DNA of 64,000 nt, taken from positions 64,189 through 128,188 of the forward strand of contig JADGBR010000004.1 in NCBI GenBank assembly GCA_015231405.1, read 5' to 3'. Made by a program: the position numbers and the translations under genes. This stretch comes from Candidatus Omnitrophota bacterium (GTDB lineage Bacteria > Omnitrophota > Gorgyraeia > Tantalellales > Tantalellaceae). Positions 14,990 through 31,383 of this stretch are shown one piece after another (position 1 is the first letter of the stretch; each line of letters starts with the position of its first letter). The notes beneath the pieces were generated by a model, which worked only from the letters and a program-made list of their open reading frames with translations, was not told where the DNA came from and did no database searches.

Positions 14990-16537
14990 TCAGCCTGTCT
15001 GATCGCGCGCATATTTACCGCCATTTATGATACCTCTGGCCTCAAGCCTCGATCTATCCAGGCATATCTGGATATTTTCATAGATGCCGTTATCCGCTAA
15101 TCCGGCCTTATAGCATATTCGGCCTGCCCAGAGCATAATAAGCTCCAGTACCGCTACTTTCCACCCGACCGCTTTTCTTTTCTCGATCCTGTAAACTTTC
15201 CATATTCTATCATACATAAGCGACAATTTCTCATCGCTCATCGCCGACATGTTCACGACGCTTTTCCAATGCCCCTCGGATCTGAAATACTTATCGTAGA
15301 ACTCCTTATCGTCTTTCATATATCCCCCGGAAAATATCTGCTCATAAAGTTTAGACCCCGGGAAAGGCGTCGCTATAGTGAAATTAAATTGTATGTTCTT
15401 ATTCTCCCTGACAGCATCCCTGACCAGCCGGATAGACATTTCAGCTTCTTCCTCTGTTTCCGCGTACTGCCCAAGCATTATCGATACGGTCGGCAATATC
15501 CCGGCTTCTTTCAGTCTCCTTAAACCTCTCCGTACCGTATCCGCCGTGAACGCTTTGCCTATTACCTTGAGCACCCGGTCGGACCCGGATTCTATCCCCA
15601 GACCCATTATCCTGCATCCCGTCGTTCTCAGCTCCGCCAAAAGGCCGTCGTCTATCCTGTCCAGGATATCGAACCGGGATGAAACGGAATACTCGATCGG
15701 ATAAGGCAGGGACTTTATTTGATCTATTATCTTTCTCACCCTATCCGTCGAATACAGGGTCGTTTCATCGGAAAAATATAGGACGTTCCCCTTAAATGAG
15801 AGAAGGGCTTCCCTGGCTTCTTTCATCATCAGCTCTACCGGACGGAACCGGGGCTTGCTGTGATGATAACAGAAATTACATGTGAACGGACACCCTCGCC
15901 CGCCATGGACATTGATAACCCTGTCGTTAAACCGCCAGTGCGGCTGCGGGAATTTGCGCGCGTACCACCTGCCGATCTCTAACCACTGCCGCTCCGGGAA
16001 TAGCTCATAAGGTATCGCGGGCAGATCTTTAAGGTCCTCGATATATTCTTCCCCGCCGGTATGGACGAACTCCCCGTCTTTTTTGAATACCAGCCCTCTG
16101 ACGCCGCTGAGATCCTTCCCCTCCCTCAAGTATTTTACCAGATTATACAGGGTGACCTCGCCTTCCCCTAAAGCCGCGAGATCGGCTCCGGTAACTTCCA
16201 GTGCTAGTTCAGGTATTGGGGTGACCATCTGTCCGCCTATGACGACCGGCACCCCGGGACAGGCTTCTTTGATCATACTGATAAGCCCGGCCAGTTCCTT
16301 AAGTTCCGGATAGAGTCCACCTATCCCTACGAGAATAGGACGTTTATCGGCGATATCCCTTACCAGATTTCCATACTTTTTATCCTCCGGCCGGAACAGA
16401 AGCTCGACGGGTTCTCCCTTTTCCTTCAAATACCCGGCCAGGTACGCGTAGGATAAGGGGAACGTGAACGCTATAGCCCTGGATACGAGAACAACCGGAC
16501 GATGGATACCTTTAACTGTCACTTTTATCTCCATTTC
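14990..16537 (-). CDS. B12-binding domain radical SAM protein (class B rSAM)
   Basis: There is an N-terminal cobalamin-binding Rossmann region and then CPFTCNFC (CxxxCxxC). Start is placed at the internal Met MEIKVTVKG (16537), which leaves a 24-nt gap to the upstream gene. The track ORF extends to 16642. Confidence 0.8.
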   Translation of the reverse strand, partial: EMEIKVTVKGIHRPVVLVSRAIAFTFPLSYAYLAGYLKEKGEPVELLFRPEDKKYGNLVRDIADKRPILVGIGGLYPELKELAGLISMIKEACPGVPVVIGGQMVTPIPELALEVTGADLAALGEGEVTLYNLVKYLREGKDLSGVRGLVFKKDGEFVHTGGEEYIEDLKDLPAIPYELFPERQWLEIGRWYARKFPQPHWRFNDRVINVHGGRGCPFTCNFCYHHSKPRFRPVELMMKEAREALLSFKGNVLYFSDETTLYSTDRVRKIIDQIKSLPYPIEYSVSSRFDILDRIDDGLLAELRTTGCRIMGLGIESGSDRVLKVIGKAFTADTVRRGLRRLKEAGILPTVSIMLGQYAETEEEAEMSIRLVRDAVRENKNIQFNFTIATPFPGSKLYEQIFSGGYMKDDKEFYDKYFRSEGHWKSVVNMSAMSDEKLSLMYDRIWKVYRIEKRKAVGWKVAVLELIMLWAGRICYKAGLADNGIYENIQICLDRSRLEARGIINGGKYARDQTG

Positions 16538-17360
16538 CTGCGGACTTGAACAGATATCCTCTGTAGCCGCACTCTTCGGGAGCGCGGTAAATCCTCGGCT
16601 TATAACCGTAAATAAACTCCCTGACAAGCTCGAGCCCGGCATCCGCGGCGGATCTTAAAAAGACTTTGCCGTTAAGGCACCATGAAAGGTATTCCGTTCC
16701 ATATCCGTACTTGTAAGGCCTCTGGATAAAAACGAACGGTTCGCCGGAAAACACCACGGGCAGCTGCGCGACGTATATATATCCCTCGGTCACCCTCGCC
16801 AGATCTCGAAGGGTCTTTCTCCAATCTTCCGAATAGTGCAAGCTTGTACCGGCCATTACCAGGTCGTACCTTCCATTAAGACAACTCTCATCGGATACGA
16901 ATACCTGATCCGGAAACAGGGTTTTACCGTGTTCCGTGAATACCGCGTGGTCTTTACAGGTATAGGATATGTCCAGCCGCGGGAACATTTCTTTCGCCAG
17001 GAAATAATACTGTCCTATCCCTCCCCCCCAATCCAACATACTTATGGAACTTTTCCCGAGCGCTGAAACCCCGAGAGCATAAGAGAAAGACATGTTTATA
17101 TTGTGCGCGAAAACATCTTCCCGCTCCGGTCTCTTCATCTCCAGAGTAATTCCCACAGGCCCTTTATCGGAGACGCAAGAGGCGTAAAACGGCCATTTCT
17201 TTCTATAAACATCCAGTATTTTCTCAACACCCCAGCCCTTAACTTCGGGGTGCCCTTTGAGGTATTTCCACCCCTCGGGGATATATTCCCACTGCGGCTT
17301 TTTCAGCCTCAAGACGAACATCGCCTTTTCGACCAGGTCTATCGCGCTGTTCTTTCCCAT
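16512..17360 (-). CDS. Putative SAM-dependent methyltransferase
   Basis: 282 aa. The G-rich motif MLDWGGGIGQYY resembles MTase motif I. It is 1 nt from the next gene. Confidence 0.5.
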   Translation of the reverse strand: MGKNSAIDLVEKAMFVLRLKKPQWEYIPEGWKYLKGHPEVKGWGVEKILDVYRKKWPFYASCVSDKGPVGITLEMKRPEREDVFAHNINMSFSYALGVSALGKSSISMLDWGGGIGQYYFLAKEMFPRLDISYTCKDHAVFTEHGKTLFPDQVFVSDESCLNGRYDLVMAGTSLHYSEDWRKTLRDLARVTEGYIYVAQLPVVFSGEPFVFIQRPYKYGYGTEYLSWCLNGKVFLRSAADAGLELVREFIYGYKPRIYRAPEECGYRGYLFKSAGNGDKSDS

Positions 17361-17361
17361 G

Positions 17362-18522
17362 CTATAACTCCAAAGCGGGTTTAACTTTTTCGAATAACCT
17401 CTCCATATTATAATCCCTGATCGTCCTTTTTTGTCCCTCTTTCGCTACCATACCTGTTTCTTTCCACTTTTTTCCGATAATAATGTCTTTCAATTTGTCC
17501 AGCAACTCTTCTTTGTGACTATATGTCAATATTTCCTTGCCGGGCTCAAATAATTCCGGTGTGTTTTCAAACCCTTCGGTAACAAGGCAGGCACCGGATC
17601 CGGTAGCTTCGTACATGCGCATATTCCCGCTGTACCGGCAGGCAAGGCCTATATGCGTATTCAGCGTGAGCTTTGACCTCGCGAGCGTTTTATACATTTC
17701 CAGATCGTAAAGGGGCCCTCTGTGCTTTGTCCGGATAACTTCGCAGTTCTTGACGTACTCACGCAAAATATCTTTCCCCTCGGGTGAAACCTTGCCTATA
17801 TCACGCCCCTTTCGTTTTCTGACCATATCGGACAGGATCGCCTTGACGTCACTCAAAAACCCCGGTTGATCCATCCGTCCGAACACGTCTATGTCTATCC
17901 CGTTCCTGATGAGGAAGGCCAGGGTATCCGCTCTTTCCGCGTGCGAGGGCGATATCGTCCCGATAAAAGTGATATCGTGTTCTTTTTCCGGACTTCCCAG
18001 AAGTTTCAACACCTCACCGTCAAACCCCGGCTTAAGAACGATGACTTTTTCGAACCTGTCATGGTATCCGGCATAAGTCCCCGGATTTTCGGTGAATAAT
18101 ACCGATATCCCGCGAGGGTCGATCTCCTTCCTAAAAGGGAGCGCAATCCAGGTAACCACTTTCCCCGCATATCCGGATATCTCTTTTATAAAATCCCCGT
18201 AAAGATCGAATATCCCGTCTATCCAGAGTATATCGGGCTTTAACCTTTTTATCTGCTCCGCTACGGTCTTTTCCCAGCTCCTCTCATCAGCGCCATTCTC
18301 AGCGACCCATTTCCTCTGGAGCGGGATATCATTGACCACTATAAAATCGGACGAAAATCCTTTCTCCGAGGCGTATCTCAAGAGCCGTAAAGGCCAGGAA
18401 AAATTCTCGCGGGCTATCCTTTCCTTGTGTTCCAGGTACGAAAGACGACCGAGGCCGGGGTTTTTCCCGTAAAACCATTTAAGATGATCGCCGTAAAACC
18501 TTAGAAGCATCAGGATCTTCAT
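17362..18522 (-). CDS. CgeB-like glycosyltransferase (GT-B fold, DUF3880/Glyco_trans_1_2-like)
   Basis: 386 aa. The C-terminal region ...ATGSGACLVTEG... and the overall layout resemble the spore-maturation CgeB family. Confidence 0.5.
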   Translation of the reverse strand: MKILMLLRFYGDHLKWFYGKNPGLGRLSYLEHKERIARENFSWPLRLLRYASEKGFSSDFIVVNDIPLQRKWVAENGADERSWEKTVAEQIKRLKPDILWIDGIFDLYGDFIKEISGYAGKVVTWIALPFRKEIDPRGISVLFTENPGTYAGYHDRFEKVIVLKPGFDGEVLKLLGSPEKEHDITFIGTISPSHAERADTLAFLIRNGIDIDVFGRMDQPGFLSDVKAILSDMVRKRKGRDIGKVSPEGKDILREYVKNCEVIRTKHRGPLYDLEMYKTLARSKLTLNTHIGLACRYSGNMRMYEATGSGACLVTEGFENTPELFEPGKEILTYSHKEELLDKLKDIIIGKKWKETGMVAKEGQKRTIRDYNMERLFEKVKPALEL

Positions 18523-19925
18523 TTGCTTTTCAGATAAACCCTTATCCCTCCGAGTAGAGCCCTGTATAAAGCGTTAAGGGCCTTAGGCACATATGCCCGG
18601 TTAGTGATACATATAAGCTTGATCACCTTTCTCCACCGGCACAGAAATTCGTAAGTTCCGCCGTCCAGCCATGCCGGCCTGCCTTTATTTTTCATCTCGA
18701 ATATCCGCGACCAGTCCTCCAGCGTGAACTCCCCGGCCTTATCCGCCAAACATTCTTTCGCTATGGCCGTCCCCGGAGTAGGTATAAGGAACGGGCTATC
18801 GCATATAGCCCGTTCGTTCTCGAGCAGGATATCGATATTCATAAGGATAGTCTCTATCGTATCTTTTTTTGTTTCGCCGGGAAAACCCTGTATCGTGACA
18901 AAATGAGGTATGATGTTCAAACCGCGGAGTTTCCTGTTAGCGTGAAGCACGTCCTCCTTGGAAGCGAACTTATTCACCATCTTAAGTATCCTTTCGGAAC
19001 CTGACTCCGCCCCGAAGGTCAGCATCCTGCAACCCGACCTCTCTATCTTTTCGATAGTGGCCGGCGTGGCTCTCGCCATATAATCCGTCCTCGCGTTCGT
19101 ATACCACTTGATCCCCACATTCTCTTTTATCAGAAGATCCAGAATGCTTTCGGCTCGTTTGATATTCCCGAAGAAATTATCGTCTATGAACGTAAAATTA
19201 GTGACGCCGTATTTCCGGATATACGTTTTTATATCCTCCACTACCCTCTCGGGCGGTAAAGCCCTCCATTTTTTCTTACGCACCGACTCCGTGCAGAAAG
19301 AACATGAAAAAGGGCATCCTCTGCTTGTCTCGACGGGAAGCACTTTTTCCCCTTCGCACCAAAGGTCCCGGGAACGGTAATTATCAAGGTCAATAAGGCC
19401 GAACGGAATGAGCGGGACACTTTCGATATTAGCGGGCTCGCCCGGGCCGGTCAATATTATTTCACCGTTCTTTTTAAAACCGATACCCGGAAGGCCGCTA
19501 AGATCGCTCTTGGAAGCGCCTATCATCTCCATAAGCTTTGGAAAAGTATTTTCACCGTCATCCCTGACGATAATATCTACGAACTCGTTCGCTATGGTCG
19601 ACCCGGGCTCAAGAGAAGCGTGGACCCCTCCCCACACGACCGGGATATCCGAAAGCTCCTTAACTAATTTTGAAACGCGCAGCGCCCCCGTTATGTGGCT
19701 CCCGCTCATCGAGGATACCCCGACGCAAAGCGGACCTTTTTTGAGTTCTTCGGATAATTTCATGTCAAAATCCGGCTCAGCCCGCTCGTCAAGAACGGTC
19801 ACATCCATACCCTTTTCGACAAGCGGCGCCGCGACCGTCAATATGCCGAGAGGCGGACGGTCAGGCATTTTACTTTCTCCGGGCTTTGCCGGATAAACCA
19901 GAACGACCCTGTTATTTCGATCCAT
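18519..19925 (-). CDS. B12-binding domain radical SAM protein (class B rSAM), paralog 2
   Basis: 468 aa. It has an N-terminal B12-binding-like domain, then CPFSCSFC. It overlaps the neighbouring gene by 4 nt. Confidence 0.8.
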   Translation of the reverse strand: MDRNNRVVLVYPAKPGESKMPDRPPLGILTVAAPLVEKGMDVTVLDERAEPDFDMKLSEELKKGPLCVGVSSMSGSHITGALRVSKLVKELSDIPVVWGGVHASLEPGSTIANEFVDIIVRDDGENTFPKLMEMIGASKSDLSGLPGIGFKKNGEIILTGPGEPANIESVPLIPFGLIDLDNYRSRDLWCEGEKVLPVETSRGCPFSCSFCTESVRKKKWRALPPERVVEDIKTYIRKYGVTNFTFIDDNFFGNIKRAESILDLLIKENVGIKWYTNARTDYMARATPATIEKIERSGCRMLTFGAESGSERILKMVNKFASKEDVLHANRKLRGLNIIPHFVTIQGFPGETKKDTIETILMNIDILLENERAICDSPFLIPTPGTAIAKECLADKAGEFTLEDWSRIFEMKNKGRPAWLDGGTYEFLCRWRKVIKLICITNRAYVPKALNALYRALLGGIRVYLKSK

Positions 19926-20742
19926 TCGCGACCTTCCTTATAAACGCCCTGTGCCATATCCGCATTATATTCAGCAGCTTCCATGGCCAGGGACAAGCGA
20001 GAATAATAAAAGCGGTCCCTTCTATCGGGTTAGCGGGATTTTTTCTTGAAAAAATATCATTTAAACGCCCGGTCCTCTCCCGTCCCTTAAGAAGCTTTTC
20101 GTCTTCGGCAGTTCCTTCATTCATGTACAACTTTAGTTCTTTATCCAACAGCAGCCTCATCCCCGAACGTCTGGCCCTTATCGTGAACTCGTAATCGGAG
20201 TGACAGTGGGGTAATAAATACGGATAAAAACCGCCCAGCTTCAAAAAATCACCGGCGGACAAGAACACTCCCCTGGTTGAAAAACAGTTGATCTTCCGAT
20301 CGTCATCGGTCATACGGAACGACAACTTGCTCCAGTCAACATGCACCCCTGAGTCCAACGCCTCTCCCGTTATCCTGTCCGTATTATAAGAATGTATCAT
20401 GTAATTGTTTTTCCCGCGCATGGCGACCGCGCCCCTTTCCAAAAAGGAGCTATCCATTTCCGTATCGTCATTCACTATAAGGATCAACTCTTCTCCGGGG
20501 ATAGCGTTATCCCTGACCCACTCATACCCTTTTTGCAGCGCCCCAGCCCACCACCAATCCCCTTTGCCTCTTATTACATCGCAGGAAGGAACTTTATCCT
20601 TGACCATCCGATCCGTTCCATCCAGGGAACCATCGTCTATCAAAACCAGATGAAAGCGCCGATACGTCTGCGCAAGCAGAGAATTAACGAATTTCTCCGT
20701 TACATTTTTCCTGTTATGGACAGGAAGCAATATGTATATCAT
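19912..20742 (-). CDS. GT2-family glycosyltransferase
   Basis: Start at MIYILLPVHNRKN. Motifs: LIDDGSLDGT and a DxD in VNDDTE. The track ORF extends to 20808. Confidence 0.75.
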   Translation of the reverse strand: MIYILLPVHNRKNVTEKFVNSLLAQTYRRFHLVLIDDGSLDGTDRMVKDKVPSCDVIRGKGDWWWAGALQKGYEWVRDNAIPGEELILIVNDDTEMDSSFLERGAVAMRGKNNYMIHSYNTDRITGEALDSGVHVDWSKLSFRMTDDDRKINCFSTRGVFLSAGDFLKLGGFYPYLLPHCHSDYEFTIRARRSGMRLLLDKELKLYMNEGTAEDEKLLKGRERTGRLNDIFSRKNPANPIEGTAFIILACPWPWKLLNIMRIWHRAFIRKVANGSK

Positions 20743-20765
20743 TACTTCACTCGATCCAACGGCAT

Positions 20766-21803
20766 TCATAGATAGTCCCAATCGTAAGATCTCCTTGTCA
20801 TGGACCATGGTATGAGTGTGTTCTTAAATTTTTCTCTGACGATCTCCAATTCCTCGTCAGTAGGTTCGGAATGAAAACCCCATTTTTCAAGAAAAAACCC
20901 TTCGACCTTGTCGATATCCTCTTTGATGATATCCCACGACCTTGTGTTCCCGCCGGCCTTATTTCCCCTGAAATGAAAATATTCGATATCGGGGACCCAG
21001 ATATTCGGAAAATTGAGCCGGAGCGCCCTTAACCCCCAATCCTCATCCACCAAAAGAGCGTTCCCGGTCCCCCAGTCATCGCAATCCCCTATTTTATTCA
21101 GTGTTTCCATACGTATAAGCACAAAGTGGTTGAAAGGGGCGTGACATCGGACGATACCCGCGGGCATATCAGCGACAAGACCCCTTATCCTGCCGACGGG
21201 TTTGGGATATGGCAGTGTTTTCCCTGTCAGCTTCCTTAACGAATAATTACAAAAATGATAAAATGTGTCCGCAAGTGGCCCCCGCTTCCACCAGTTTTCG
21301 GGAAAAACATGGAACTGGAATAATTTCCTTCTGTCCCAGCCATTTTCTTGCCTATGGTCTATATGATATCCGGACCTTACAGACGGGCTAAAATCGCCAT
21401 ATTTCCACCCGGTATCCGTAAAGCTCACCCACCCGACCTCGCGGCCTAAACGTTCAAGATAACCACTCACTTTACCATAGAAATCCCCTGTCAAAAGCTC
21501 TATATCGTCATGGGACTTTACAAAATACCTGCACGCTCCGGCTTCTCTTATGGCGGCATTGATAAAAGACGCCCATGAAACATTTTTTTCCTGAAAAACC
21601 CTGAAATTCCCGCTATGTATCGACACATATCTTTTCACAAAACGGCTGACAGCCGGGTCAATGTTCAGACCCAGCGAAATAAGCACTCGCCAATCACAAG
21701 CGCCGATATTACGCCTAAAGGAATCGAAAGCCCTCCCGACGAGTTTTACTGATGAACCCGGAGACCCTACCCTAATGGCGATGATCAGATCATTCATTTC
21801 CAT
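20766..21803 (-). CDS. Hypothetical protein, possible GT-A-fold glycosyltransferase
   Basis: 345 aa. VKSHDDIELL is a DxD-like motif. Nothing else is recognisable. Confidence 0.3.
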   Translation of the reverse strand: MEMNDLIIAIRVGSPGSSVKLVGRAFDSFRRNIGACDWRVLISLGLNIDPAVSRFVKRYVSIHSGNFRVFQEKNVSWASFINAAIREAGACRYFVKSHDDIELLTGDFYGKVSGYLERLGREVGWVSFTDTGWKYGDFSPSVRSGYHIDHRQENGWDRRKLFQFHVFPENWWKRGPLADTFYHFCNYSLRKLTGKTLPYPKPVGRIRGLVADMPAGIVRCHAPFNHFVLIRMETLNKIGDCDDWGTGNALLVDEDWGLRALRLNFPNIWVPDIEYFHFRGNKAGGNTRSWDIIKEDIDKVEGFFLEKWGFHSEPTDEELEIVREKFKNTLIPWSMTRRSYDWDYL

Positions 21804-22803: not shown

Positions 22804-22810
22804 ATTACAC

Positions 22811-24610
22811 CTAAAGGATTTTCGCTATCTCGGTCATGTGCCTGAACCCGGGGCATTTCTCCAGAAGCTCGGCATAAGATCCGGAACCCGCGAGCCCCCC
22901 TTTTTCCAGAAAAAATATCGTATCACAATTCCTTATAGTCGTGAGCCTGTGGGCTATCATTACAACGGTTTTCCTCGCAGTTATCTCTAACAGGACCTTC
23001 ATGAACATGCGCTCGGTTTCATTATCCAGAGCCGCGGTCGCCTCGTCCATCACCAGAACATCCGGATCATGGTACAGCGCCCTCGCTATGCCGACACGCT
23101 GTCTTTCCCCTCCGGAAATACGCGTACCTTTCTCCCCGATAACGGTCCCTATTTTTTCCGGCAAAGAACGGACGAGAGCCTCAAGCTGTGCCATCTTCAA
23201 AACGTCCCACACCCTCCCCTCGTCTATCTCGCCCTCCGGAACGCCGAAGGCGACATTGGCCTTGATCGTATCATCGGAGAGATATATGTCCTGGGGTATA
23301 TACCCGATCTGTCTCTGCCACCCCGCGATATTCCCGGCCACGTCCGCTCCATCCACGCAAACGCTTCCGGCCGTGGGCTTTAAAAGGCCCAGTAAAATAT
23401 CCACCGCCGTCGTCTTCCCTGCGCCCGAAGGCCCTACGAACCCTACGACTTTCCTCACGGGTATATTTATGGATACAGTCTTAAGGGCCAACCCCGCTGA
23501 TCCTTCGTACCTAAAAGAAACATTCCGAAATTCTATGTTCTTCTCGAACGCCGTTTTAACGAAAGTACCGCTCCCCGGGACCATATCCGCCGACCTTTCG
23601 CAATCAACGAGATCCCGGTATATCCGGTTAAAAGACGGAATATAAAAACGTATTGTATTGACCGATGTGCTTATCCTGGTAAGGCTCGGCATAAGTCGGG
23701 CGGCGGCCACTGCCAGCATCGAAAGCCTGAAAAGAACACCCCGACTGTCAGACCCGCTCATCAGAAGACCTATCATGACGAGAAGCACAAGGGCCACCGC
23801 GACCGTCTCTATGTAGAACCTCGGAGCCTGAGTGATAACCTGTTTAAAATGGGCCGCGCGGATGACTTCCTTAAAATGATGGGAATATGCGTCGCTGAAG
23901 AAGTCCTCACAGCCTAATATTTTTGTCTCTTTAATGCTGCCCAGACCCTGGTTAACGTTCTGGATAGTCTTGCCTATATGGTACTGCTGCATCTCGCCAT
24001 GCGCCCGCAATTTTTTTCGTACAAGGACATAAAACAACAGCATGGAAAGCGCCAGAACGGCTATCACGCTCCCTGAAATAACGAAACTCGTCCATAAAAG
24101 CGCCGCGCAGATGATGATAACTACCGCGCCCTCCGTAAATATAAGCAGTATAGGCCACAACAGACCCTGCGACAGGACAAAGACGTTCTGGATATTCCGC
24201 AAAAGCTCGGCGGAGTTCCTCTGGAGATGGAACGTATAAGGGCTTAAAAGATATGAACGATAAAGCCTGGATGAAAGGCGCAAACACTTCCTATTCATAA
24301 AAAGGCTCTGGAAATGGACGGCCAGGCACAGGTAAAGGTTCTTGACAACGAACACCGCGATAAGCCCCGCTCCGGCACATATCATGAACCCGTTGAATGA
24401 GCCCCCGGAAAAACGGACAAATATCCCGTTTAAAAATGGATTTGAGTTAACGAGCTCTGGTCTGTTAAGCAACGCTATGAACGGAAGAAGCGCCCCTATG
24501 CCTATGACCTCGAAGCACGCCCCAGCAAGTATCATGGCCAAAAGGCAAAAGATCCCGATCTTCTCTTTACCGTCGAATATATCCCAGAGTTTCGCTAAGA
24601 GGTCCTTCAT
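22811..24610 (-). CDS. ABC transporter, fused permease/ATP-binding protein (MsbA/PglK-type exporter)
   Basis: 599 aa. It has a six-TM N-terminal domain plus an NBD with Walker A GPSGAGKTT, signature LSGGERQRV and Walker B VLVMDEAT. Confidence 0.9.
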   Translation of the reverse strand: MKDLLAKLWDIFDGKEKIGIFCLLAMILAGACFEVIGIGALLPFIALLNRPELVNSNPFLNGIFVRFSGGSFNGFMICAGAGLIAVFVVKNLYLCLAVHFQSLFMNRKCLRLSSRLYRSYLLSPYTFHLQRNSAELLRNIQNVFVLSQGLLWPILLIFTEGAVVIIICAALLWTSFVISGSVIAVLALSMLLFYVLVRKKLRAHGEMQQYHIGKTIQNVNQGLGSIKETKILGCEDFFSDAYSHHFKEVIRAAHFKQVITQAPRFYIETVAVALVLLVMIGLLMSGSDSRGVLFRLSMLAVAAARLMPSLTRISTSVNTIRFYIPSFNRIYRDLVDCERSADMVPGSGTFVKTAFEKNIEFRNVSFRYEGSAGLALKTVSINIPVRKVVGFVGPSGAGKTTAVDILLGLLKPTAGSVCVDGADVAGNIAGWQRQIGYIPQDIYLSDDTIKANVAFGVPEGEIDEGRVWDVLKMAQLEALVRSLPEKIGTVIGEKGTRISGGERQRVGIARALYHDPDVLVMDEATAALDNETERMFMKVLLEITARKTVVMIAHRLTTIRNCDTIFFLEKGGLAGSGSYAELLEKCPGFRHMTEIAKIL

Positions 24611-24620
24611 GATCTATGCT

Positions 24621-25832
24621 TCATGAGAAATGATCGATCGTCTTTGAAAGAGATCTGGCCTGATCCCCCATTTCCTCATCGTTCTTCTGATTGGTAGTAA
24701 ATTGCATGAGTTGAGGCTGGATCAATTCGGCGTTAGGGCATATCCCCTTATCCGTAACCATCCTGCCGCCAAGGCCTATCGACCTTAACAGCTTTTTCAC
24801 GTCATCGATGCAATCTTCCTGGTATGTGAGCGCCCACGCCGCGTATATCCCGTCCCCCCCGTTCTCCACATGTTTCTTTCTAAAATCAGTCCATTTAATA
24901 TCCTGGCGCAAAAACCTGAGACCAAAGGTAAAATATGAGTTCCTGTCGCCCGCGGGAACGGATTGCGGCTTAAGCCATTCATACCCGGAAATAACGTCCA
25001 GATATAGCCCCGCCATCTTCTCCCTTTTCTCAACGAACCAGTCCAGCTTTTCAAGCTGAGCCAGGGCCAGCGCGGCCGCGACCTCGGATAACCTGTACAT
25101 GAACCCGAACATGTCATGCCGCTTATAAGCCGGGTCCTGGAACAGATTCTTGTCTATGCGGACTTTTCCGGACAGCGCGCTCGCGTTACGGAAACCTATC
25201 GAGCTCAATTTCCTTATCCTGGTCGCGAGAGCTTCATCATTCGTGGCTATTATCCCACCATCGCCGCATGTCAGGTGTTTCGAGTTCTCGAAACTCCAGC
25301 TGCCGACATCGGCGGTAGTTCCGCCTATTTTACCGCGGTGCGTCCCGAGGAAACACTGAGCGCTGTCCTCAAGGACCTTCAAATTAAATTCCCTGGCGAT
25401 ATTCATTATCTCGGTCATGTTACATACCTGCCCATAAAGATGCACGGGCATGATAGCTTTAGTCCGGGATGTGATCTTTTTTCTTACATCGGCCGGATCA
25501 ATGAGAAAAGTATCCTTATCAACGTCCGCGAAAACAGGGACCGCATTGCAATAAAGCACCGCGTACATGCATGAAATGACCGTAAGCGCCGGGATAATGA
25601 CCTCATCCCCGTATCCAACCCCTAAGGCCACGAGCGCCGCGTGAAGCGTCGTCGTGCCGGAATTGAATGTCACGGCGTATCTCATACCAAAGCGCTCGGC
25701 GAAAGCCCTTTCTATCCTTGAATTCATGTTCCCGGAAGTCCCGCTCGCGAAACCGGAATCAAGCACCTCATTGATATACTTTCTTTCCCTTTCATCGAAC
25801 CGCCAGGAGAGATCTCCCATGATACCCGTCAC
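24621..25832 (-). CDS. DegT/DnrJ/EryC1/StrS-family PLP-dependent sugar aminotransferase (LegC/PseC-like)
   Basis: 403 aa. The conserved fold is present, including ...SFENSKHLTCGDGG... (the lysine region). Confidence 0.85.
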   Translation of the reverse strand: MTGIMGDLSWRFDERERKYINEVLDSGFASGTSGNMNSRIERAFAERFGMRYAVTFNSGTTTLHAALVALGVGYGDEVIIPALTVISCMYAVLYCNAVPVFADVDKDTFLIDPADVRKKITSRTKAIMPVHLYGQVCNMTEIMNIAREFNLKVLEDSAQCFLGTHRGKIGGTTADVGSWSFENSKHLTCGDGGIIATNDEALATRIRKLSSIGFRNASALSGKVRIDKNLFQDPAYKRHDMFGFMYRLSEVAAALALAQLEKLDWFVEKREKMAGLYLDVISGYEWLKPQSVPAGDRNSYFTFGLRFLRQDIKWTDFRKKHVENGGDGIYAAWALTYQEDCIDDVKKLLRSIGLGGRMVTDKGICPNAELIQPQLMQFTTNQKNDEEMGDQARSLSKTIDHFS

Positions 25833-25838
25833 CTCCGT

Positions 25839-26552
25839 CTAATGAGTTCCGCGCTTTTTCATTATTTCCTCTATGATTGCAAGGTCCCACTCATCGTCCA
25901 CCTCGTAATTCTGCCACCTCTCTATAAAAAGAGGGATAGTCCTGGCCGTATCGAACGTTCTTGCCCTGCAAAAGGGCCCGACCTTCGCGAGATACAGAAC
26001 TCCATACGGGAAGTAGGCTTTTCCCCTGTCCTGGCGGCGGTAGACAGCCTTCAGCCCCGAATACGGCAGCATCCTTCCGGAGCTGATCTTTTTCGCCAAA
26101 CATGGATGCTCCAGGTGTATTTCACCCAGCGTCATGAGATTGTCCATCCCAGGCTTCCCGATCAATTCCTTTATGCCATTATCGATATCCTCATCCCTTC
26201 TTAACGGCGAAGTAGGCTCCAAAAGGGCGATGAAATCGAACGATACCCCTTTCTTCTTAAAATGCCCCAGAGCATGAAGTATGACATCGGAAGCTTTCGC
26301 GGTATCGGACGCCAGCTTTCGCGGACGGATAAAAGGGACTTCCGCCCCGCACTGAACGGAAATATCCGCGATCTCACGGTCATCCGTCGAAACGACCACT
26401 TTGTCGGCATATTCGCTTTTCATAGCCTGCTCTATCGTCCAGGCTATGAGAGGCTTGCCCCCCAGATCCCTGATATTTTTACGGGGAAGGCCTTTACTCC
26501 CGCCCCTGGCCGGTATAAGAGCCAATATTTTTTTTCCTTTGTACATTGTCAT
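25839..26552 (-). CDS. Acylneuraminate cytidylyltransferase family (CMP-nonulosonate synthetase, NeuA/LegF/PseF-like)
   Basis: 237 aa. ILALIPARGGSKGLPRKN is the hallmark CMP-NeuAc synthetase P-loop. Confidence 0.85.
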   Translation of the reverse strand: MTMYKGKKILALIPARGGSKGLPRKNIRDLGGKPLIAWTIEQAMKSEYADKVVVSTDDREIADISVQCGAEVPFIRPRKLASDTAKASDVILHALGHFKKKGVSFDFIALLEPTSPLRRDEDIDNGIKELIGKPGMDNLMTLGEIHLEHPCLAKKISSGRMLPYSGLKAVYRRQDRGKAYFPYGVLYLAKVGPFCRARTFDTARTIPLFIERWQNYEVDDEWDLAIIEEIMKKRGTH

Positions 26553-26572
26553 CCCTTACGATCTTTTTTTCG

Positions 26573-27655
26573 TTAACCTTTAAGACTGTCGCTGACAAGC
26601 CTTATATCGCACCGGGAACTGCATTTGTAATTGCCGGGAAATCCACCGTATATGTGCCGCTTCCTGAATTCCTCATAGCGCTTTCCATTCCATATTTCCC
26701 CGAGAGTCTCGGTAGAAACGTTGCCCATGACCATCTCGGCATTGTAGTCCTGCGTACAAGGGACCACGGACCCGTCGGCCATGACCGTCAGGGACATCCA
26801 CGGGAATTCGCAATACTGCGACTCGTAATGCGATCTGCATTCAAGTTCCTCGGACCCTTCATAAAGCCATCTATTGTCCTGGCTTTTCACATAGGCATAC
26901 ACCGGCTCCTCCCGCCATAAGCTCAGAAAATCCTCGCACATCTTTTCCATATGCGGTCCGGACTCAAGAGCCAGCATCACAACGGTTATCTTTGTTTTAA
27001 TGGCCGGATCTCTCTCCTTGATACTTATCAGCTCCTTGACCTTCCTGTACGAATCTGTGAAATTGCTTTTTTCACCTCGTATCTTTTTCTCAGTCAAATC
27101 GTCCAAGCTGTCCATAGAAAATTTAATGACGCCAAGACCGTTTTTCATCATTTCGGCGACTTTCTCCACCTTTATGTTCGCCGGCATACATGAAAAGTAA
27201 GTAGGCACACCCATCCTCGTACATGCTTTTATCCTTTCACCTATATGCGGATCAAGAAGAGGGTCGCCGAACCCATGCAGAACAAGATATCTTGAACTAG
27301 TATAGAAATAAAAAGCGTTCTCACTCATCTCCGAAGGATAAATAGAATATGTCCTCTGAATAAACCCGTCAAAATCGTCCAGGTCCTCTCCGGTGAAAGG
27401 TTTGATCTGTGACAAGACCTTTTCAAAAAGCTCCATGTCCATAGTCTTGATGGGGCGATCCATAAGAGTCGTACGCGGACACATGATACAAGTCATGTTA
27501 CATACGTTAGTAGTTTCGATATTAAAAACGGCCGGCAACCTTGAACGCTCGCGCTCGAAAAACGCGGCTATTTCTTCCTCACCAGGTTTTTCATCCGGAC
27601 CGGTTATCCTTCTTTTTATATCCCCGCAAACCCTGAAAAACCGAATATCATACAT
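26573..27655 (-). CDS. Radical SAM protein with C-terminal SPASM/twitch-like Cys cluster
   Basis: 360 aa. CNMTCIMC (CxxxCxxC) is at about residue 52. The C-terminus has Cys-rich CEFPW...CTQDYN...CSSRC. Confidence 0.75.
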   Translation of the reverse strand: MYDIRFFRVCGDIKRRITGPDEKPGEEEIAAFFERERSRLPAVFNIETTNVCNMTCIMCPRTTLMDRPIKTMDMELFEKVLSQIKPFTGEDLDDFDGFIQRTYSIYPSEMSENAFYFYTSSRYLVLHGFGDPLLDPHIGERIKACTRMGVPTYFSCMPANIKVEKVAEMMKNGLGVIKFSMDSLDDLTEKKIRGEKSNFTDSYRKVKELISIKERDPAIKTKITVVMLALESGPHMEKMCEDFLSLWREEPVYAYVKSQDNRWLYEGSEELECRSHYESQYCEFPWMSLTVMADGSVVPCTQDYNAEMVMGNVSTETLGEIWNGKRYEEFRKRHIYGGFPGNYKCSSRCDIRLVSDSLKG

Positions 27656-27681
27656 AACTATTCCCCGCCGGAGCCGTAAGG

Positions 27682-28809
27682 CTAAACTGTATCGACAAAA
27701 TATTTCTGAAGTTTCACATCCCAGAACCCGGGCCTTTTTACCGTCCTGATGAACCGCTCGGCGCTTTTACCGTCGCCGAAGTGCATTGACCTTTTCTTTT
27801 TTATCCCGGGCACCTTATTGATAGCCGTAAGAATGTCTTCTTTTGATCCCAGACAATTAATTATGGTATCGCATAAATAGCGCCGCTCCTGGCGGTTCCC
27901 GATATTGACGCTCGGAATAGAATATATCGGCGCTTCTCTTATGCCCGCGCTGGAGTTCCCGATTATGAACTCGCAATGTTTAAGAAGCACCAGAAAACTC
28001 TCGAAACGCGTCGAAGGGAATATCCTAAAACGCGGATTACCCCTATAAAGCTCGATCTCCTCAATAATAATGTCAGCCCCGGGGTCATTGTTGGGATATA
28101 TGAGAATATAGTTCCTTCCCGACTCGATCAAAGACTCCATGACCGCCCTGAAATCTCTCAGAAGGTTGTGAAGATTGTGGCTGACCGGATGATAGATGCA
28201 CATGGCGTATTTATCTTTGAACGGTATAGCGTAATGCCTTTTCACCGTATCAAGAGCAGGAAGGCTATCGGAGACCATCAAATCTATATCTGGAGACCCT
28301 ATCACATTTATACTTTTGGGGTCCTCGCCCATGCGTAGAAGCCTTTTACGCGCCTCATCATTAGCCGCGAAATGCACATGCGCCAGTTTCGAGACGGCAT
28401 GCCTGATAGACTCGTCGATCGCCCCGGAAACCTCTCCTCCTTCAATGTGCGCCACAAAGAAATTATTCAATACCCCTGAAATAGCCCCGGCGAGAGCCTC
28501 GGTACGGTCGCCGTGAATGACCAGCATGTCCGGCTTCAAAAGATGCAGGTAATTGCCCAGGCCCTGGACGGTATTGGTAAATATCGTATCCAATGAGTCA
28601 CCGAGTTTCTGGTTGATGAAATAATGTATTTTCTTAAAACCCCTTTTTTTGACTTCGCTGGCGGTGTTCCCGTATTTTGGGAGCATGTGCATGCCTGTAA
28701 CGAATATGTACAGCTTAAACCCCCGTTCCTTTTCTAACGCGTGCATCAAAGGCCGTAATTTCCCGAAATCGGCCCGAGACCCGGTAAGGAATAAGATCTT
28801 TTTAACCAT
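27682..28809 (-). CDS. neuC: UDP-N-acetylglucosamine 2-epimerase (hydrolysing), NeuC/LegG-like
   Basis: 375 aa. Motifs: GSRADFGKL...HIEGGE... Confidence 0.85.
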   Translation of the reverse strand: MVKKILFLTGSRADFGKLRPLMHALEKERGFKLYIFVTGMHMLPKYGNTASEVKKRGFKKIHYFINQKLGDSLDTIFTNTVQGLGNYLHLLKPDMLVIHGDRTEALAGAISGVLNNFFVAHIEGGEVSGAIDESIRHAVSKLAHVHFAANDEARKRLLRMGEDPKSINVIGSPDIDLMVSDSLPALDTVKRHYAIPFKDKYAMCIYHPVSHNLHNLLRDFRAVMESLIESGRNYILIYPNNDPGADIIIEEIELYRGNPRFRIFPSTRFESFLVLLKHCEFIIGNSSAGIREAPIYSIPSVNIGNRQERRYLCDTIINCLGSKEDILTAINKVPGIKKKRSMHFGDGKSAERFIRTVKRPGFWDVKLQKYFVDTV

Positions 28810-29839
28810 TAGTATCTCTCCACTTTAACTGTGAATCCATCGCGATGTTATCCTTCGCTTTTTTCCCAAGCAGACTTTTGAAAGATACTGCCTTAATCTC
28901 GCCGGTACCGGGGCGTTTCACCCAGATATTATCGGGAGTAAATTTCTCGTTTTTCTTTATGTCGCGTATCGCCACGACGGAAGCGTAGGCGAAATTTATG
29001 ACAGGCATTTCCTCAGACAATATCTCTTTCTTTCCTCCCATGGCCTGCCATACCGCTTTCGCCCCCTTCACAAGCTCCGATAGCTCTCCCGGTTCGATCG
29101 AGATAGAAATATCCGGGCCCGGCCATTTTCGGCTAACCGTAAAATGTTTTTCCAAAACACACGCTCCGAAAGATACCGCCCCCAGGCATGTATATATCCC
29201 CTGGGAATGGTCGCTCAATCCCACCGGAAGTCCAAAGATATCCATCAGCTGTCCGATGGCCCCCAGCCGGACCTTTTCATAGGGTGTCGGATATATAGAA
29301 GTACAATGCATGAGCATGACCGGAGTTTTATACTTTCTGATAACTTTCAAGGTTTTGCCTATGGAGCCGATATCATTCATCCCGGTAGAAAGGATCATCG
29401 GCTTGCCCTTTTTAGCTATATGTTCAATAAGAGGGAGGTTATTACATTCTCCGGACCCTATTTTAAAAGCCGGAACGTCCATCCTTGAAAGCCTGTCGGC
29501 GGCTTCCCTGGAAAACGGCGTCGACAGGTACATTATATTATTTTTTTCACAGTATTTCTTGATACGCTTTTCCTCATCTTCACTTAATTCACAGCGCTTG
29601 ATTATATCCCATACGCTTTCACTCGATAATTTACCGGGCTTGGCTTTGGATTTTATCATTTCGGCCTCGGCAATATGGGATTGGAACTTAATGCAATCCG
29701 CTTTAGCGATGACGGCCGCGTCTACAAGCTTGAGCGCCTTATCAAAAGAACCTTCATGGTTTATCCCGGCTTCAGCGATTACAAAAGGAGGATGCCCCGC
29801 CCCTACTTTCCTATCCCCAATTCTCATATTTTTCATCAT
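28802..29839 (-). CDS. neuB: N-acetylneuraminate synthase family protein (NeuB/LegI/PseI-like) with C-terminal SAF domain
   Basis: 345 aa. FVIAEAGINHEGS is the hallmark motif. Confidence 0.9.
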   Translation of the reverse strand: MMKNMRIGDRKVGAGHPPFVIAEAGINHEGSFDKALKLVDAAVIAKADCIKFQSHIAEAEMIKSKAKPGKLSSESVWDIIKRCELSEDEEKRIKKYCEKNNIMYLSTPFSREAADRLSRMDVPAFKIGSGECNNLPLIEHIAKKGKPMILSTGMNDIGSIGKTLKVIRKYKTPVMLMHCTSIYPTPYEKVRLGAIGQLMDIFGLPVGLSDHSQGIYTCLGAVSFGACVLEKHFTVSRKWPGPDISISIEPGELSELVKGAKAVWQAMGGKKEILSEEMPVINFAYASVVAIRDIKKNEKFTPDNIWVKRPGTGEIKAVSFKSLLGKKAKDNIAMDSQLKWRDTNG

Positions 29840-29897
29840 TTCACCCCATTTGATCGGCAGAATCGTTTAAATCGTTTAAAATGCTTTTAACGCAACT

Positions 29898-29925
29898 ATT
29901 ATATTTAATTAAACCCTTTTGTCAA
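29898..29925 (-). promoter_or_regulatory. Near-consensus sigma70 promoter TTGACA-16-TATAAT (minus strand) driving the neuB-neuC-rSAM-neuA-aminotransferase-ABC operon
   Basis: The minus strand reads TTGACAaaagggtttaattaaaTATAAT. The -35 box is at 29920-29925 and the -10 box at 29898-29903. It lies 60 nt upstream of the neuB ATG. Confidence 0.6.
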
Positions 29926-29973
29926 TTGCCAACAGATCAGTTGACCACTTAATAAGCAATTAGGCTCAGGTCT

Positions 29974-31383
29974 TTAATCGAGAGGGATTTCACCATCCAG
30001 ATACTTTTTAAAATTCTCATAAAAATGGATCTGCCGATCCTTTCTGAAATCAGGCATATCAATGCAGGTATTAGAATCGCCGATAATATGGTCCTCCGGA
30101 ATATACCCAAGATCCACTGCCATTTTTCTCATTTCCGTCCCTCTGTAAGGCTGAAAATAATTGATAGAAATGCTTTTCGGCCGTATCTTTCTCAAAAGAT
30201 CTATCGTTTCCCTGAACATACATTCTTTTTCATAAGGCATGCCGATAATGATGTTAGCCGTAGTCCTTATGCCGTGTTTATGGACAATATCAAAAGCCTC
30301 GATTATCTTTTCGTTGCTCATATATCTTCTCATGTGTGTTTTTCTCAGTTCCACGTTGCCGTTCTCTATCCCTATGCCGATGGAGGAAACATTGGCATCT
30401 TTTAACTTCTTTATGTAACCCTCACTTATTGTTTCCGGCCTGGTCTGGATGTAAAACGGCAAACCTATCCTGGACTTATATCTTTCACAGAACAGGTCAA
30501 ATCTTTCGGGAGGCATACCCAAAAAATTATCATCTATGAAGAACACCAATTCCAATCCGTACCTATCCTTTACCATTGAAACTTCGTCCATGGTCCTATC
30601 AATATCCCTGAATCTGAGGAAGTCGCCTTTTTTCTCATATAGTTCCTTCAAACTCGCGGTGCAGCAAAACGTACAGTTAAATGGACACCCTCTCGCTAAC
30701 TCAAAAAAACCTGTTCTGAAAAATGAGCCGCAATAAGGCTTGTAGTAATGTCTTTTGTCGAAAATGGACCAATCCTGAAATGAAAGAGTGGCCATATCCT
30801 TTAACGGCCTTAACGGATTTTTTATTATTTTCCCTTCTTTCTTGACCCACAGGTTCTTTATCGCGGCATGGTCCCGCCCTTCAACCAAACTTTCCGCCAG
30901 TTCTACAAGAGGATCCTCCCCTTCCCCGACACACACAATATCTATTCCGTCATTATTGATCACCATATCAGGACACATCGTTACCGTTGGTCCGCCGGCA
31001 ATAACCGGAACCTTCACCGTCTTTCTAAACTCCCCGAGAAGTGCTACGACGAATTTATAAGATACGTCAATTATTGTCACCGCGATAAGATCCGGCCTAA
31101 AATCGTCAACCGCTTTCTTGAACAACTCCGGTATCTTTTCCGGGACCGTAGGATCCCAGTAATCCCCCCAGTATTTCAAGTGATCCGCTTTTAAAACTCC
31201 CCCATGTTTTTGCCTGTACAAATGGGTCTTTGGAGGGGCTTTTAAAAATGTTGTGTCGAAGCACGCGGTTTCGAACCCGGCGGCCTTAAGCCCCCCCGAA
31301 AGCAATGCCAAACCGTTAGGAATACCGCCATCCCCTTCGGTATTGGGATACAAAAAAAGGACCCGCCCCTTAATGTTAAGCAT
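29974..31383 (-). CDS. B12-binding domain radical SAM protein (class B rSAM), paralog 3
   Basis: 469 aa. It has an N-terminal B12-like domain, then CPFNCTFC. It overlaps the upstream sulfotransferase gene by 8 nt. Confidence 0.8.
   Translation of the reverse strand: MLNIKGRVLFLYPNTEGDGGIPNGLALLSGGLKAAGFETACFDTTFLKAPPKTHLYRQKHGGVLKADHLKYWGDYWDPTVPEKIPELFKKAVDDFRPDLIAVTIIDVSYKFVVALLGEFRKTVKVPVIAGGPTVTMCPDMVINNDGIDIVCVGEGEDPLVELAESLVEGRDHAAIKNLWVKKEGKIIKNPLRPLKDMATLSFQDWSIFDKRHYYKPYCGSFFRTGFFELARGCPFNCTFCCTASLKELYEKKGDFLRFRDIDRTMDEVSMVKDRYGLELVFFIDDNFLGMPPERFDLFCERYKSRIGLPFYIQTRPETISEGYIKKLKDANVSSIGIGIENGNVELRKTHMRRYMSNEKIIEAFDIVHKHGIRTTANIIIGMPYEKECMFRETIDLLRKIRPKSISINYFQPYRGTEMRKMAVDLGYIPEDHIIGDSNTCIDMPDFRKDRQIHFYENFKKYLDGEIPLD

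Follow-up and report, generated by a model that had tools for sequence, protein, structure and literature searches.

Flagellins, lipopolysaccharides (LPS), capsules and S-layers are capped by nonulosonic acids, i.e., sialic, legionaminic and pseudaminic acids and related sugars, which shape recognition by phages, hosts and the immune system. To our knowledge, the described pathways to these sugars use only NAD-, pyridoxal phosphate (PLP)- and acyl-CoA-dependent steps. The closest described radical S-adenosylmethionine (SAM) enzymes are BtrN of butirosin biosynthesis, a 2-deoxy-scyllo-inosamine dehydrogenase with a "twitch" auxiliary cluster that is followed by the DegT-family aminotransferase BtrS, and the class-B C-methyltransferases GenK, GenD1, Fom3, TokK, CysS and MgmA/QCMT. 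AprD4 of apramycin biosynthesis, a radical-SAM 1,2-diol dehydratase that has a B12-like domain and takes an aminoglycoside sugar as substrate, has the same fold as these methyltransferases and does not use cobalamin. The KdnB/KdnA pair of Shewanella, an Fe-dependent alcohol oxidase and an aminotransferase, acts on an ulosonic acid to give 8-amino-Kdo. Here we analysed 64,000 nucleotides of a Candidatus Omnitrophota bacterium (contig JADGBR010000004.1, positions 64,189 to 128,188 of the forward strand; this whole stretch is called the window), in which five radical-SAM (rSAM) genes lie among glycan genes. At least two of the five belong to uncharacterised families that stand beside nonulosonic sugar genes across many phyla; this suggests that the making of these sugars includes a radical step not yet described.

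Results

Radical-SAM genes and the nonulosonate cassette

The open reading frame (ORF) listing together with the Pfam and NCBIfam scans showed that the window is a large surface-glycan gene island, nearly all of it on the minus strand. An earlier note on this DNA had placed five rSAM genes in such an island, and the ORF listing confirmed all five at the coordinates it gave:

14990-16537 (ORF to 16642), minus strand: B12-binding rSAM #1 (Pfam B12-binding E=5.7e-12, Radical_SAM E=9.6e-21)
18519-19925, minus strand: B12-binding rSAM #2 (B12-binding E=2.3e-15, Radical_SAM E=5.3e-24)
26573-27655, minus strand: rSAM with a BtrN-like twitch auxiliary-cluster domain, called the twitch rSAM below (Radical_SAM E=1.3e-9, SPASM E=3.8e-16)
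29974-31383, minus strand: B12-binding rSAM #3 (B12-binding E=1.3e-13, Radical_SAM E=2.6e-24)
46951-47943 (longest ORF to 48018), minus strand: fifth rSAM with a twitch-like four-cysteine C-terminus (Radical_SAM E=3.7e-10 as the only Pfam match)

Two of the starts, 16537 and 47943, are internal ATGs of ORFs that begin at 16642 and 48018, and they suit the upstream genes better. The glycan neighbours were also seen as had been described, i.e., GT2 and GT4 glycosyltransferases, a CgeB-like protein (Glyco_trans_1_2), NeuB, NeuC, a CMP-transferase, two DegT proteins, a sulfotransferase, methyltransferases and an ABC exporter. Five rSAM genes in about 33 kb would be well above the genome-average expectation; a stronger argument comes from their recurrence in other genomes.

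The part from 32194 to 11617 carries 18 co-directional genes, which overlap or are spaced by at most 26 bp except at one 75-bp and one 134-bp gap. In the order of transcription they begin with the sulfotransferase, B12-rSAM #3, NeuB, NeuC, the twitch rSAM, the CMP-transferase, DegT and the ABC exporter, and continue with two ORFs of no assigned function, a GT2, B12-rSAM #2, the CgeB-like glycosyltransferase, a LIC12133-like methyltransferase, B12-rSAM #1, a GT4 and a GT2. A NeuC-type epimerase, a NeuB-type synthase and a CMP-transferase, which together mark a nonulosonate cassette, are thus present side by side with an aminotransferase:

28802-29839, minus strand: NeuB-type nonulosonate synthase (Pfam NeuB E=5.6e-81 and SAF; NCBIfam NeuB_NnaB 390 bits against a cut-off of 399.65; PseI 256 bits)
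27682-28809, minus strand: NeuC-type hydrolysing UDP-HexNAc 2-epimerase (NCBIfam NeuC_NnaA 402 bits, cut-off 235.9)
25839-26552, minus strand: CMP-nonulosonate synthetase-like cytidylyltransferase (Pfam CTP_transf_3 E=3.9e-24; NCBIfam PseF 143 bits against 205.7)
24621-25832, minus strand: DegT-family PLP aminotransferase (Pfam E=9.8e-84; closest NCBIfam model LegC, 221 bits against 420)
29898-29925, minus strand: promoter-like site TTGACA-16-TATAAT

The promoter-like site lies in the 134-bp gap, which separates B12-rSAM #3 from NeuB and also holds a Shine-Dalgarno-like GGGGTG. It agrees with the consensus at 12/12 positions about 50 nt upstream of the NeuB start; it is a consensus match only, and the window-wide count of such sites is not above the shuffled expectation. 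Judged from this site, it is suggested that the genes from NeuB to the ABC exporter may be transcribed as a separate unit.

Genome context of the twitch enzyme

The scan of species-representative genomes gave 80 loci with twitch-family members of 40-59% identity to the window protein, including many from Pelagibacteraceae, Rhodospirillales, Planctomycetes, Omnitrophota, Anaerolineae, Dehalococcoidia, Nitrospina and DPANN archaea. Around each locus about 10 kb was searched by tblastn with the window proteins. The co-occurrence with neuB, which the earlier note had put forward as a check, was found in 68/80 loci, and NeuC was present in 19/80; the CMP-transferase was present in 58/80, a B12-rSAM in 22/80, the orthologue of the window DegT in 21/80 (43-74% identity, median 47%) and a HisF/WbuZ-like gene in 11/80. 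Unsupervised clustering of the neighbouring ORFs, annotated with Pfam, returned NeuB in 61 loci (median distance 400 bp), CTP_transf_3 in 56 and 27 (two clusters), short-chain dehydrogenases/reductases (SDR) in 40, GFO_IDH_MocA proteins (GFO) in 36, Capsule_synth in 22, B12-rSAMs in 21, DegT and 2-hydroxyacid dehydrogenases in 20 each, and NeuC in 19. In the 53 loci whose flanks reach 5 kb or more in both directions, NeuB and the CMP-transferase were each within 6 kb of the twitch rSAM in 45, and at least one of DegT, SDR, GFO and 2-hydroxyacid dehydrogenase was nearby in 41. As immediate neighbours of the twitch rSAM, NeuB stands downstream in 35/80 loci and the CMP-transferase upstream in 28/80, and DegT lies directly upstream in several.

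The full set of NeuB, NeuC, CMP-transferase, DegT, B12-rSAM #3 and twitch rSAM was found in a Planctomycetia metagenome-assembled genome (MAG; L006) and an Omnitrophota MAG (L008), at 54-74% identity to the window and in rearranged order. By this shared gene content, the nonulosonate cassette including both rSAMs is inherited as a unit. In Roseospira, the twitch rSAM lies among sugar-nucleotide genes and adjoins a flagellin gene and a tetratricopeptide-repeat/GT41 protein like FlmG. Related Rhodospirillales carry a CMP-transferase, DegT or NeuB, the twitch rSAM and a B12-rSAM beside FlmG-like transferases (the high-GC loci L009-L011 were read by tblastn), and the twitch rSAM and a B12-rSAM are 2.3 kb apart in a Magnetospirillum MAG.

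Cluster ligands of the twitch enzyme

The homologue search with the 26573 protein yielded 873 homologues at E<=1e-5; between phyla, identities are about 50%. Its radical-SAM cluster motif is CNMTCIMC (CX3CX2C). The cysteines invariant in a 21-member alignment are this triad, C156 and exactly four C-terminal residues, C282, C300, C345 and C349, and the last four align in the family profile to the ligand cysteines of the BtrN auxiliary cluster. The profile matched BtrN in the PDB at E=4.7e-15, compared with E=1.3e-4 for the next match, and the single-sequence search agreed. BtrN was also the top Foldseek match and had the highest identity among the structural neighbours (22%).

Both this protein and the one at 46951 had been called SPASM-type. 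A full SPASM domain has 7-8 cysteines and two auxiliary clusters, whereas both families keep four invariant C-terminal cysteines. The Pfam SPASM match of the 26573 protein stands, and by its cysteines the enzyme is a twitch enzyme with one predicted auxiliary cluster, not a full SPASM enzyme; the 46951 protein has no Pfam SPASM match, only the four invariant C-terminal cysteines of its family. The two proteins are related to each other at the superfamily level only. The association of the twitch rSAM with DegT, SDR and GFO partners is in keeping with its predicted reaction, in which a secondary alcohol of a sugar or cyclitol would be oxidised to a ketone.

The three B12-binding enzymes

As had been described, the three other proteins each combine an N-terminal B12-like domain with a cluster motif: matches to PF02310 and PF04055 were obtained, and the motifs are RGCPFTCNFC, RGCPFSCSFC and RGCPFNCTFC. 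All three have the layout of class-B enzymes, i.e., an N-terminal PF02310 domain and a radical-SAM core with CX3CX2C. The term "paralogous" used for them holds at superfamily depth only. For each, a separate set of orthologues exists elsewhere at 50-69% identity, and the three enzymes represent, at the level of sequence, three distinct families rather than recent paralogues because their mutual identity is 23-24%.

For B12-rSAM #3, about 60 clusters of orthologues were obtained (53-69% identity), several of them on contigs equal in length to those of the closest twitch homologues. Its orthologues are in nonulosonate loci in every context examined (L006, L008, L172 and L173). L172 holds SPASM, PseB-like, NeuB, NeuC, PtmE-like, CMP-transferase, HisF and HisH genes, B12-rSAM #3 and then three further B12-rSAMs. 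In L173, NeuC and NeuB are followed by an Fe-dependent alcohol dehydrogenase (Fe-ADH), DegT and a CMP-transferase (the trio at 5824-8997), the #3 orthologue, Wzx and SPASM. The pair of Fe-ADH and DegT is the KdnB/KdnA arrangement, and the Fe-ADH takes the place where the window has the twitch rSAM. The trio may replace the twitch rSAM by a non-radical route, and the arrangement lends weak support, by analogy, to an "oxidise, then transaminate" role of the latter. The AlphaFold2 model of #3, the only one of the three for which the fold was checked, had a pLDDT of 93 and best fold matches to TsrM, MgmA, AprD4, CysS, OxsB and TokK (TM-score 0.64-0.72); Foldseek E-values to solved class-B members were 1e-17 to 1e-22 at TM 0.6-0.7. 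The class-B fold of #3 is established at the level of this model; methylation is a prediction.

B12-rSAMs #1 and #2 are in a second module, together with two further genes:

17362-18522, minus strand: CgeB-like glycosyltransferase, Glyco_trans_1_2 (Pfam E=1.3e-19)
16512-17360, minus strand: methyltransferase-like protein near the LIC12133 family (NCBIfam TIGR04325 61 bits against 80)

Another Omnitrophota contig (L086) carries an ABC exporter, two ORFs, B12-rSAM #2 (59%), the CgeB-like glycosyltransferase, the methyltransferase (48%) and B12-rSAM #1 (54%), and so reproduces the order of the window from 24610 to 14990, with the CgeB-like gene at the matching position and the methyltransferase orthologue between it and #1. 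Orthologues of #2 range from 46 to 63% identity, and those of at least 51% are in a glycan context in 4/4 loci, i.e., L086 and three further ones at 51-60% (L169, L170 and L171). The latter three are rich in DegT, SPASM-rSAM, further B12-rSAMs and formyl- or methyltransferases and also have heptose genes, GT4, GT2, NeuB, NeuC and Wzx; a triad of SPASM-rSAM, DegT and B12-rSAM recurs in them. The metagenome scan with the #2 family alignment found relatives of at most 39% identity. The closest solved structure to #2 is MgmA/QCMT (9ccb, E=5.6e-21).

A side observation concerns a 46%-identical #2 homologue on a Bacillota contig (L087, 3639-12833). The spoIVA gene is split there: the part for the ATPase and middle domains (3639-4907) is separated from that for the C-terminal domain (12558-12833) by an insert of about 7.6 kb. 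The insert carries the B12-rSAM together with genes for a serine recombinase, AgrB, an AgrD-like protein of 44 aa, a histidine kinase and a major facilitator superfamily transporter. The insert looks like a sporulation-excised intervening element with radical-SAM cargo.

The fifth radical-SAM gene

The gene at 46951 is flanked by a GT2 and a protein with nine transmembrane (TM)-like segments, and from this position the enzyme may act on a glycan. With a cut-off of E<=1e-30, its family comprises 242 representative clusters; it keeps CX3CX2C and has C234, C252, C276 and C281 invariant in the pattern GxxCxAG...RC...PCPxxxCxCPYEG. The closest NCBIfam family, STM4011, scored 54 bits against a cut-off of 200, and the matches of the family profile in the PDB cover the N-terminal core only. 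Among the homologues, P0393, P0395, P0399, P0417 and P0418 are tandem duplications or fusions of 600-1480 aa with two matched stretches each.

Comparison with curated families

The best NCBIfam scores of the B12 proteins were 116 bits (HpnJ, cut-off 578; #1), 145 bits (BchE, 481) and 110 bits (TIGR04013, 251), and the BchE, HpnJ, PhpK and ApyD models gave 90-145 bits at best against cut-offs of 480-750. All named class-B subfamilies (BchE, HpnJ, HpnR, PhpK, KedN5, TsrM-type, BzaD, MgmA and ApyD) stayed below their cut-offs of 251-775, and the two rSAMs without a B12 domain did not reach any NCBIfam cut-off either. The earlier note had held that housekeeping homology would speak against its reading. 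The MiaB, HemN-type, HemZ and MoaA-type models gave 20-35 bits on the window rSAMs, and the housekeeping families as a whole (HemN/HemZ, MiaB/RimO, MoaA, BchE) 20-145 bits against cut-offs of 231-653. A housekeeping identity was rejected, since all scores were far under the curated cut-offs and none of the five proteins reached one. None of the five reached an NCBIfam cut-off of a known family for peptides that are made by the ribosome and modified after translation (RiPPs). The absence of an apparent precursor-peptide gene was also borne out. Gaps are at most 134 bp. In the largest, the small ORFs are one of 23 codons on the opposite strand and others that overlap with coding genes, with no precursor-gene candidate among them; there is no precursor gene between 11.6 and 32.2 kb because the intergenic space is too small.

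Other features of the island

The remaining genes of the run and some further ones are as follows:

31376-32194, minus strand: sulfotransferase (Pfam Sulfotransfer_1 23.9 bits against a cut-off of 22), overlapping B12-rSAM #3 by 8 nt
22811-24610, minus strand: ABC exporter with fused transmembrane and nucleotide-binding domains (Pfam ABC_membrane and ABC_tran), with a 45%-identical copy in the syntenic L086
20766-21803 and 21790-22803, minus strand: two soluble ORFs with no assigned function, no Pfam or NCBIfam match and no TM-like segments
19912-20808, minus strand: GT2 glycosyltransferase (Pfam Glycos_transf_2 E=1.6e-16)
12419-14914, minus strand: GT4 glycosyltransferase of 831 aa with its Pfam GT4 domains at residues 478-801 only, the N-terminal ~450 residues having no Pfam family match
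445-2090, minus strand: WbuZ/HisF-like acetamidino-modification subunit and hexapeptide acyltransferase (NCBIfam WbuZ 263 bits against 299.7)
38133-39116: LegB-like dehydratase

Further along the island, the LegB/RmlB-like dehydratase and a PseC-like DegT make up a second amino-sugar set, and a GDP-mannose dehydratase, methyltransferases, a PMT_2 GT-C glycosyltransferase, a CysQ-like phosphatase and GT2 genes lie along with the fifth rSAM. The sulfotransferase, the CysQ-like 3'-phosphoadenosine 5'-phosphate (PAP)/inositol phosphatase (42782-43786) and a sulfatase (53233-54894) are within one island, which hints at a sulfated glycan. Three minus-strand ORFs without a family match, 3914-5479, 7762-9363 and 47945-49570, have 11, 6 and 9 TM-like segments and are by these segments candidates for Wzy, Wzx or ligase-type membrane proteins; the third has a 29%-identical homologue in L086. 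Between two GT2 genes, at 10662-11370 on the plus strand, two small overlapping ORFs encode a minimal nucleotidyltransferase with a GSRASGD motif and a HEPN-like protein; from their translations, judged by eye, they resemble a toxin-antitoxin pair of the MNT/HEPN type. At 33127-35214 (minus strand), the glycan genes are directly adjoined by a GDSL esterase and a cysteine peptidase of the papain family (C1), the latter unusual at such a locus. The far end (56374-61395, minus strand) holds a ResIII/DEAD helicase of 934 aa, a DUF5674 protein and a Wzm/Wzt-like pair of ABC-2 permease and ATPase. An AAA_14/DUF4143 ATPase is inserted among glycan genes at 5440-6600 (minus strand), and the GC content swings from 0.43 at 30-32 kb to 0.53 at 36-44 kb; because of this insertion and these swings, a mosaic, horizontally assembled island is suggested. 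An Omnitrophota preprint reported hypervariable polysaccharide cassettes, with which a mosaic island is consistent, and did not mention these rSAM enzymes. The Rfam and transfer RNA scans of the window gave no matches.

Discussion

Our results confirmed that five rSAM genes lie in a glycan island, and from their domains, cluster ligands and fold class and from the conservation of the gene neighbourhoods observed here, the five are very probably sugar or glycan tailoring enzymes. The earlier proposal of radical sugar chemistry at a cell-surface glycan locus gains support from the conserved sugar-gene neighbourhoods, and the chemistry itself would be as follows. The core unit, transcribed from the consensus promoter at about 29.9 kb, would comprise NeuB, NeuC, the twitch rSAM, the CMP-transferase, DegT and the ABC exporter, with B12-rSAM #3 and the sulfotransferase just upstream. 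NeuC and NeuB would build a nine-carbon 2-keto-3-deoxy acid. The 5'-deoxyadenosyl radical of the twitch rSAM would then abstract a carbinol hydrogen and the electron would pass to the single auxiliary [4Fe-4S] cluster, turning a secondary alcohol into a ketone, which the adjacent DegT aminotransferase would convert to an amine by the logic of BtrN/BtrS and KdnB/KdnA; in relatives without DegT, the ketone would be reduced again by SDR or GFO-type reductases and give an epimer. B12-rSAM #3 would alter an unactivated carbon of the same sugar. Most likely, a substrate radical would receive a methyl group from methylcobalamin, as it does in GenK, Fom3 and TokK. The product would be activated by the CMP-transferase and would end up in LPS, in a capsule or on a protein. 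In the second module, B12-rSAM #2, the CgeB-like glycosyltransferase, the methyltransferase and B12-rSAM #1 would form a conserved block which modifies another sugar or the growing glycan likewise. We hold this reading as a whole, in which a BtrN-like twitch dehydrogenase yields a keto nonulosonate intermediate, DegT aminates it and the B12 enzymes functionalise unactivated sugar carbons, with moderate confidence.

Several observations weigh against it. DegT is a partner in about one quarter of the twitch loci, and amination is therefore not the general role of the twitch family. The #2 homologues at 46-49% identity are in agr-peptide or nonribosomal peptide synthetase-like contexts, and the function of #2 cannot safely be transferred below about 50% identity because the context differs there. 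Among distant class-B relatives, used as a loose control, any glycan-type gene was found in 18/40 long loci. The best PDB sequence match of both #1 (E=2.2e-14) and #3 (E=3.5e-18) is AprD4, over the rSAM core only. Within the 64-kb window, no cobalamin riboswitch (the Rfam scan was empty) and no gene for B12 transport or synthesis was found.

The twitch rSAM could instead act before NeuB, on the hexose or hexosamine precursor and not on the nine-carbon acid, and could for example yield a 4-keto sugar nucleotide where an NAD-dependent dehydratase or dehydrogenase would otherwise do so; or it could be a NeoN-like epimerase or a DesII-like deaminase or dehydratase. Most twitch loci indeed have a short NeuB and a CMP-transferase and no NeuC (present in 19/80), SDR and GFO partners are commoner than DegT, and the sugar-modifying rSAMs DesII and BlsE rank level with BtrN in the fold searches. 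DesII, however, does not have the four-cysteine auxiliary domain that here aligns specifically to BtrN, and we consider these alternatives somewhat unlikely.

For the B12-domain enzymes, it is conceivable but rather unlikely that they act on the sugar as AprD4-like radical 1,2-diol dehydratases or as OxsB/HpnJ-like rearrangement enzymes, not as methyltransferases; the vicinal diols at C7-C9 of a nonulosonate could, for example, give a keto-deoxy intermediate for amination by DegT. The AprD4 matches and the TM of 0.69-0.72 for the fold of #3 agree with this, as do HpnJ as the top NCBIfam match of #1 and a cassette that has an aminotransferase without an adjacent 4,6-dehydratase. On the other hand, the NCBIfam AprD4 model gave 49-57 bits against a cut-off of 500, the AprD4 matches are confined to the core, the LegB-like dehydratase is present at 38133-39116, and most characterised class-B enzymes are methylases (PMC12931638).

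It is very unlikely that the product of the island, tailored by the rSAMs, is a glycosylated small molecule for secretion (aminoglycoside-like or a glycolipid) in place of an envelope glycan. An rSAM dehydrogenase with an aminotransferase and a B12 methylase does follow aminoglycoside logic (BtrN/BtrS and GenK/GenD1; in part PMC4340712), and the operon has its own ABC exporter. Against this, no 2-deoxy-scyllo-inosose synthase or other aminocyclitol gene was found in the window, NeuB, NeuC, the CMP-transferase, the many GT2 and GT4, PMT_2 GT-C, Wzm/Wzt-like ABC-2 and multi-TM Wzy-like ORFs typify surface-glycan loci, and the relatives adjoin flagellin and FlmG-like transferases. That the rSAMs are RiPP or other peptide maturases merely sited in a glycan island is highly improbable. 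In favour are sub-threshold NCBIfam matches to ApyD (RiPP) and rSAM_ocin_1, the #2 homologue of the Bacillota element (L087), which has agrB, an AgrD-like peptide gene and a small ORF for neighbours, and SuiB and SkfB among the fold neighbours of the twitch model. Against this stand gaps that fit no candidate precursor, no adjacent protease, leader-binding (RRE) or cyclase gene, and neighbours that across dozens of genomes are sugar genes and not peptides.

The earlier note had described such chemistry as essentially undescribed, and our searches of the literature for radical SAM together with nonulosonic acids, flagellin glycosylation, NeuB or polysaccharide agree, since no linking paper was found. 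In a recent review of B12-rSAMs, carbohydrates appear only via antibiotic pathways (PMC12931638). A 2026 preprint reported a CMP-activated ulosonic acid with one extra backbone carbon in Magnetospirillum gryphiswaldense and proposed no genes for it; the pair of twitch rSAM and B12-rSAM in the Magnetospirillum MAG might be linked to this sugar. What is new here, as far as gene content tells, is known enzyme classes in a new pathway context, reached through orthologous families without a curated model. As a tentative and rather doubtful extension, radical-SAM chemistry would be a widespread and overlooked branch of nonulosonic-acid biosynthesis in SAR11, Rhodospirillales, Planctomycetes, Chloroflexi, Omnitrophota and DPANN archaea, in which a keto hub made by a BtrN-like twitch enzyme is aminated or epimerised and cobalamin rSAMs C-methylate to ulosonic acids of at least 10 carbons.

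A conserved rSAM between the CMP-transferase and NeuB in many phyla would imply an unrecognised sugar class and a new carbohydrate C-H functionalisation, and the carriers include Pelagibacteraceae, a family with members highly abundant in the ocean. Candidate genes are supplied for the unexplained higher-carbon ulosonic acids, and the enzymology of aminoglycoside antibiotics (BtrN, GenK, AprD4) would have counterparts in the primary biosynthesis of the cell surface. The analysis defines three or four orthologous rSAM families, as yet uncharacterised, with a predicted substrate class, which is usually missing for this superfamily.

Comparison with known systems

As compared to the Neu, Leg and Pse pathways (NeuC/NeuB/NeuA; LegB, C, H, G, I and F), the window NeuC reaches the equivalog cut-off, and the NeuB, the CMP-transferase and the LegC-like DegT are recognisable. 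The NeuB, PseF-like and LegC-like proteins are all under their equivalog cut-offs, however, and because of these scores a product other than canonical Neu, Leg or Pse is suggested. The window cassette also has rSAM genes, whereas no described pathway with radical-SAM steps was found in the literature searched. The route proposed for the window, from hydroxyl to ketone to amine on a 2-keto-3-deoxy acid, would be like that of KdnB/KdnA, and the trio of L173 stands by a #3 orthologue; the oxidant would be a radical-SAM enzyme instead of an Fe-ADH, and the sugar a nine-carbon one.

With the class-B C-methyltransferases, the window B12-rSAMs share the layout of a B12-binding domain and a radical-SAM core, #3 matches TsrM, MgmA, CysS and TokK in fold (TM 0.64-0.69) and the best sequence match of #2 is MgmA. 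They differ in being at most about 20% identical to these enzymes, in scoring below the curated thresholds and in their envelope-glycan and nonulosonate context; cobalamin use and methyl transfer would follow by analogy. AprD4 has a comparable fold score to #3, and it differs in the restriction of the match to the rSAM core and in the low score of its NCBIfam model.

The twitch rSAM resembles BtrN in its CX3CX2C core, in four C-terminal cysteines in the arrangement of the BtrN ligands and in DegT as a recurrent direct neighbour, as BtrS is for BtrN. It is longer (360 aa compared with about 250 aa) because it has an additional helical segment at the N-terminus and an insertion near residues 60-125, and the convincing match is limited to its C-terminal 70 residues. 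BtrN is encoded among aminocyclitol genes and the window enzyme, with an activity predicted from its sequence, among those for nonulosonates.

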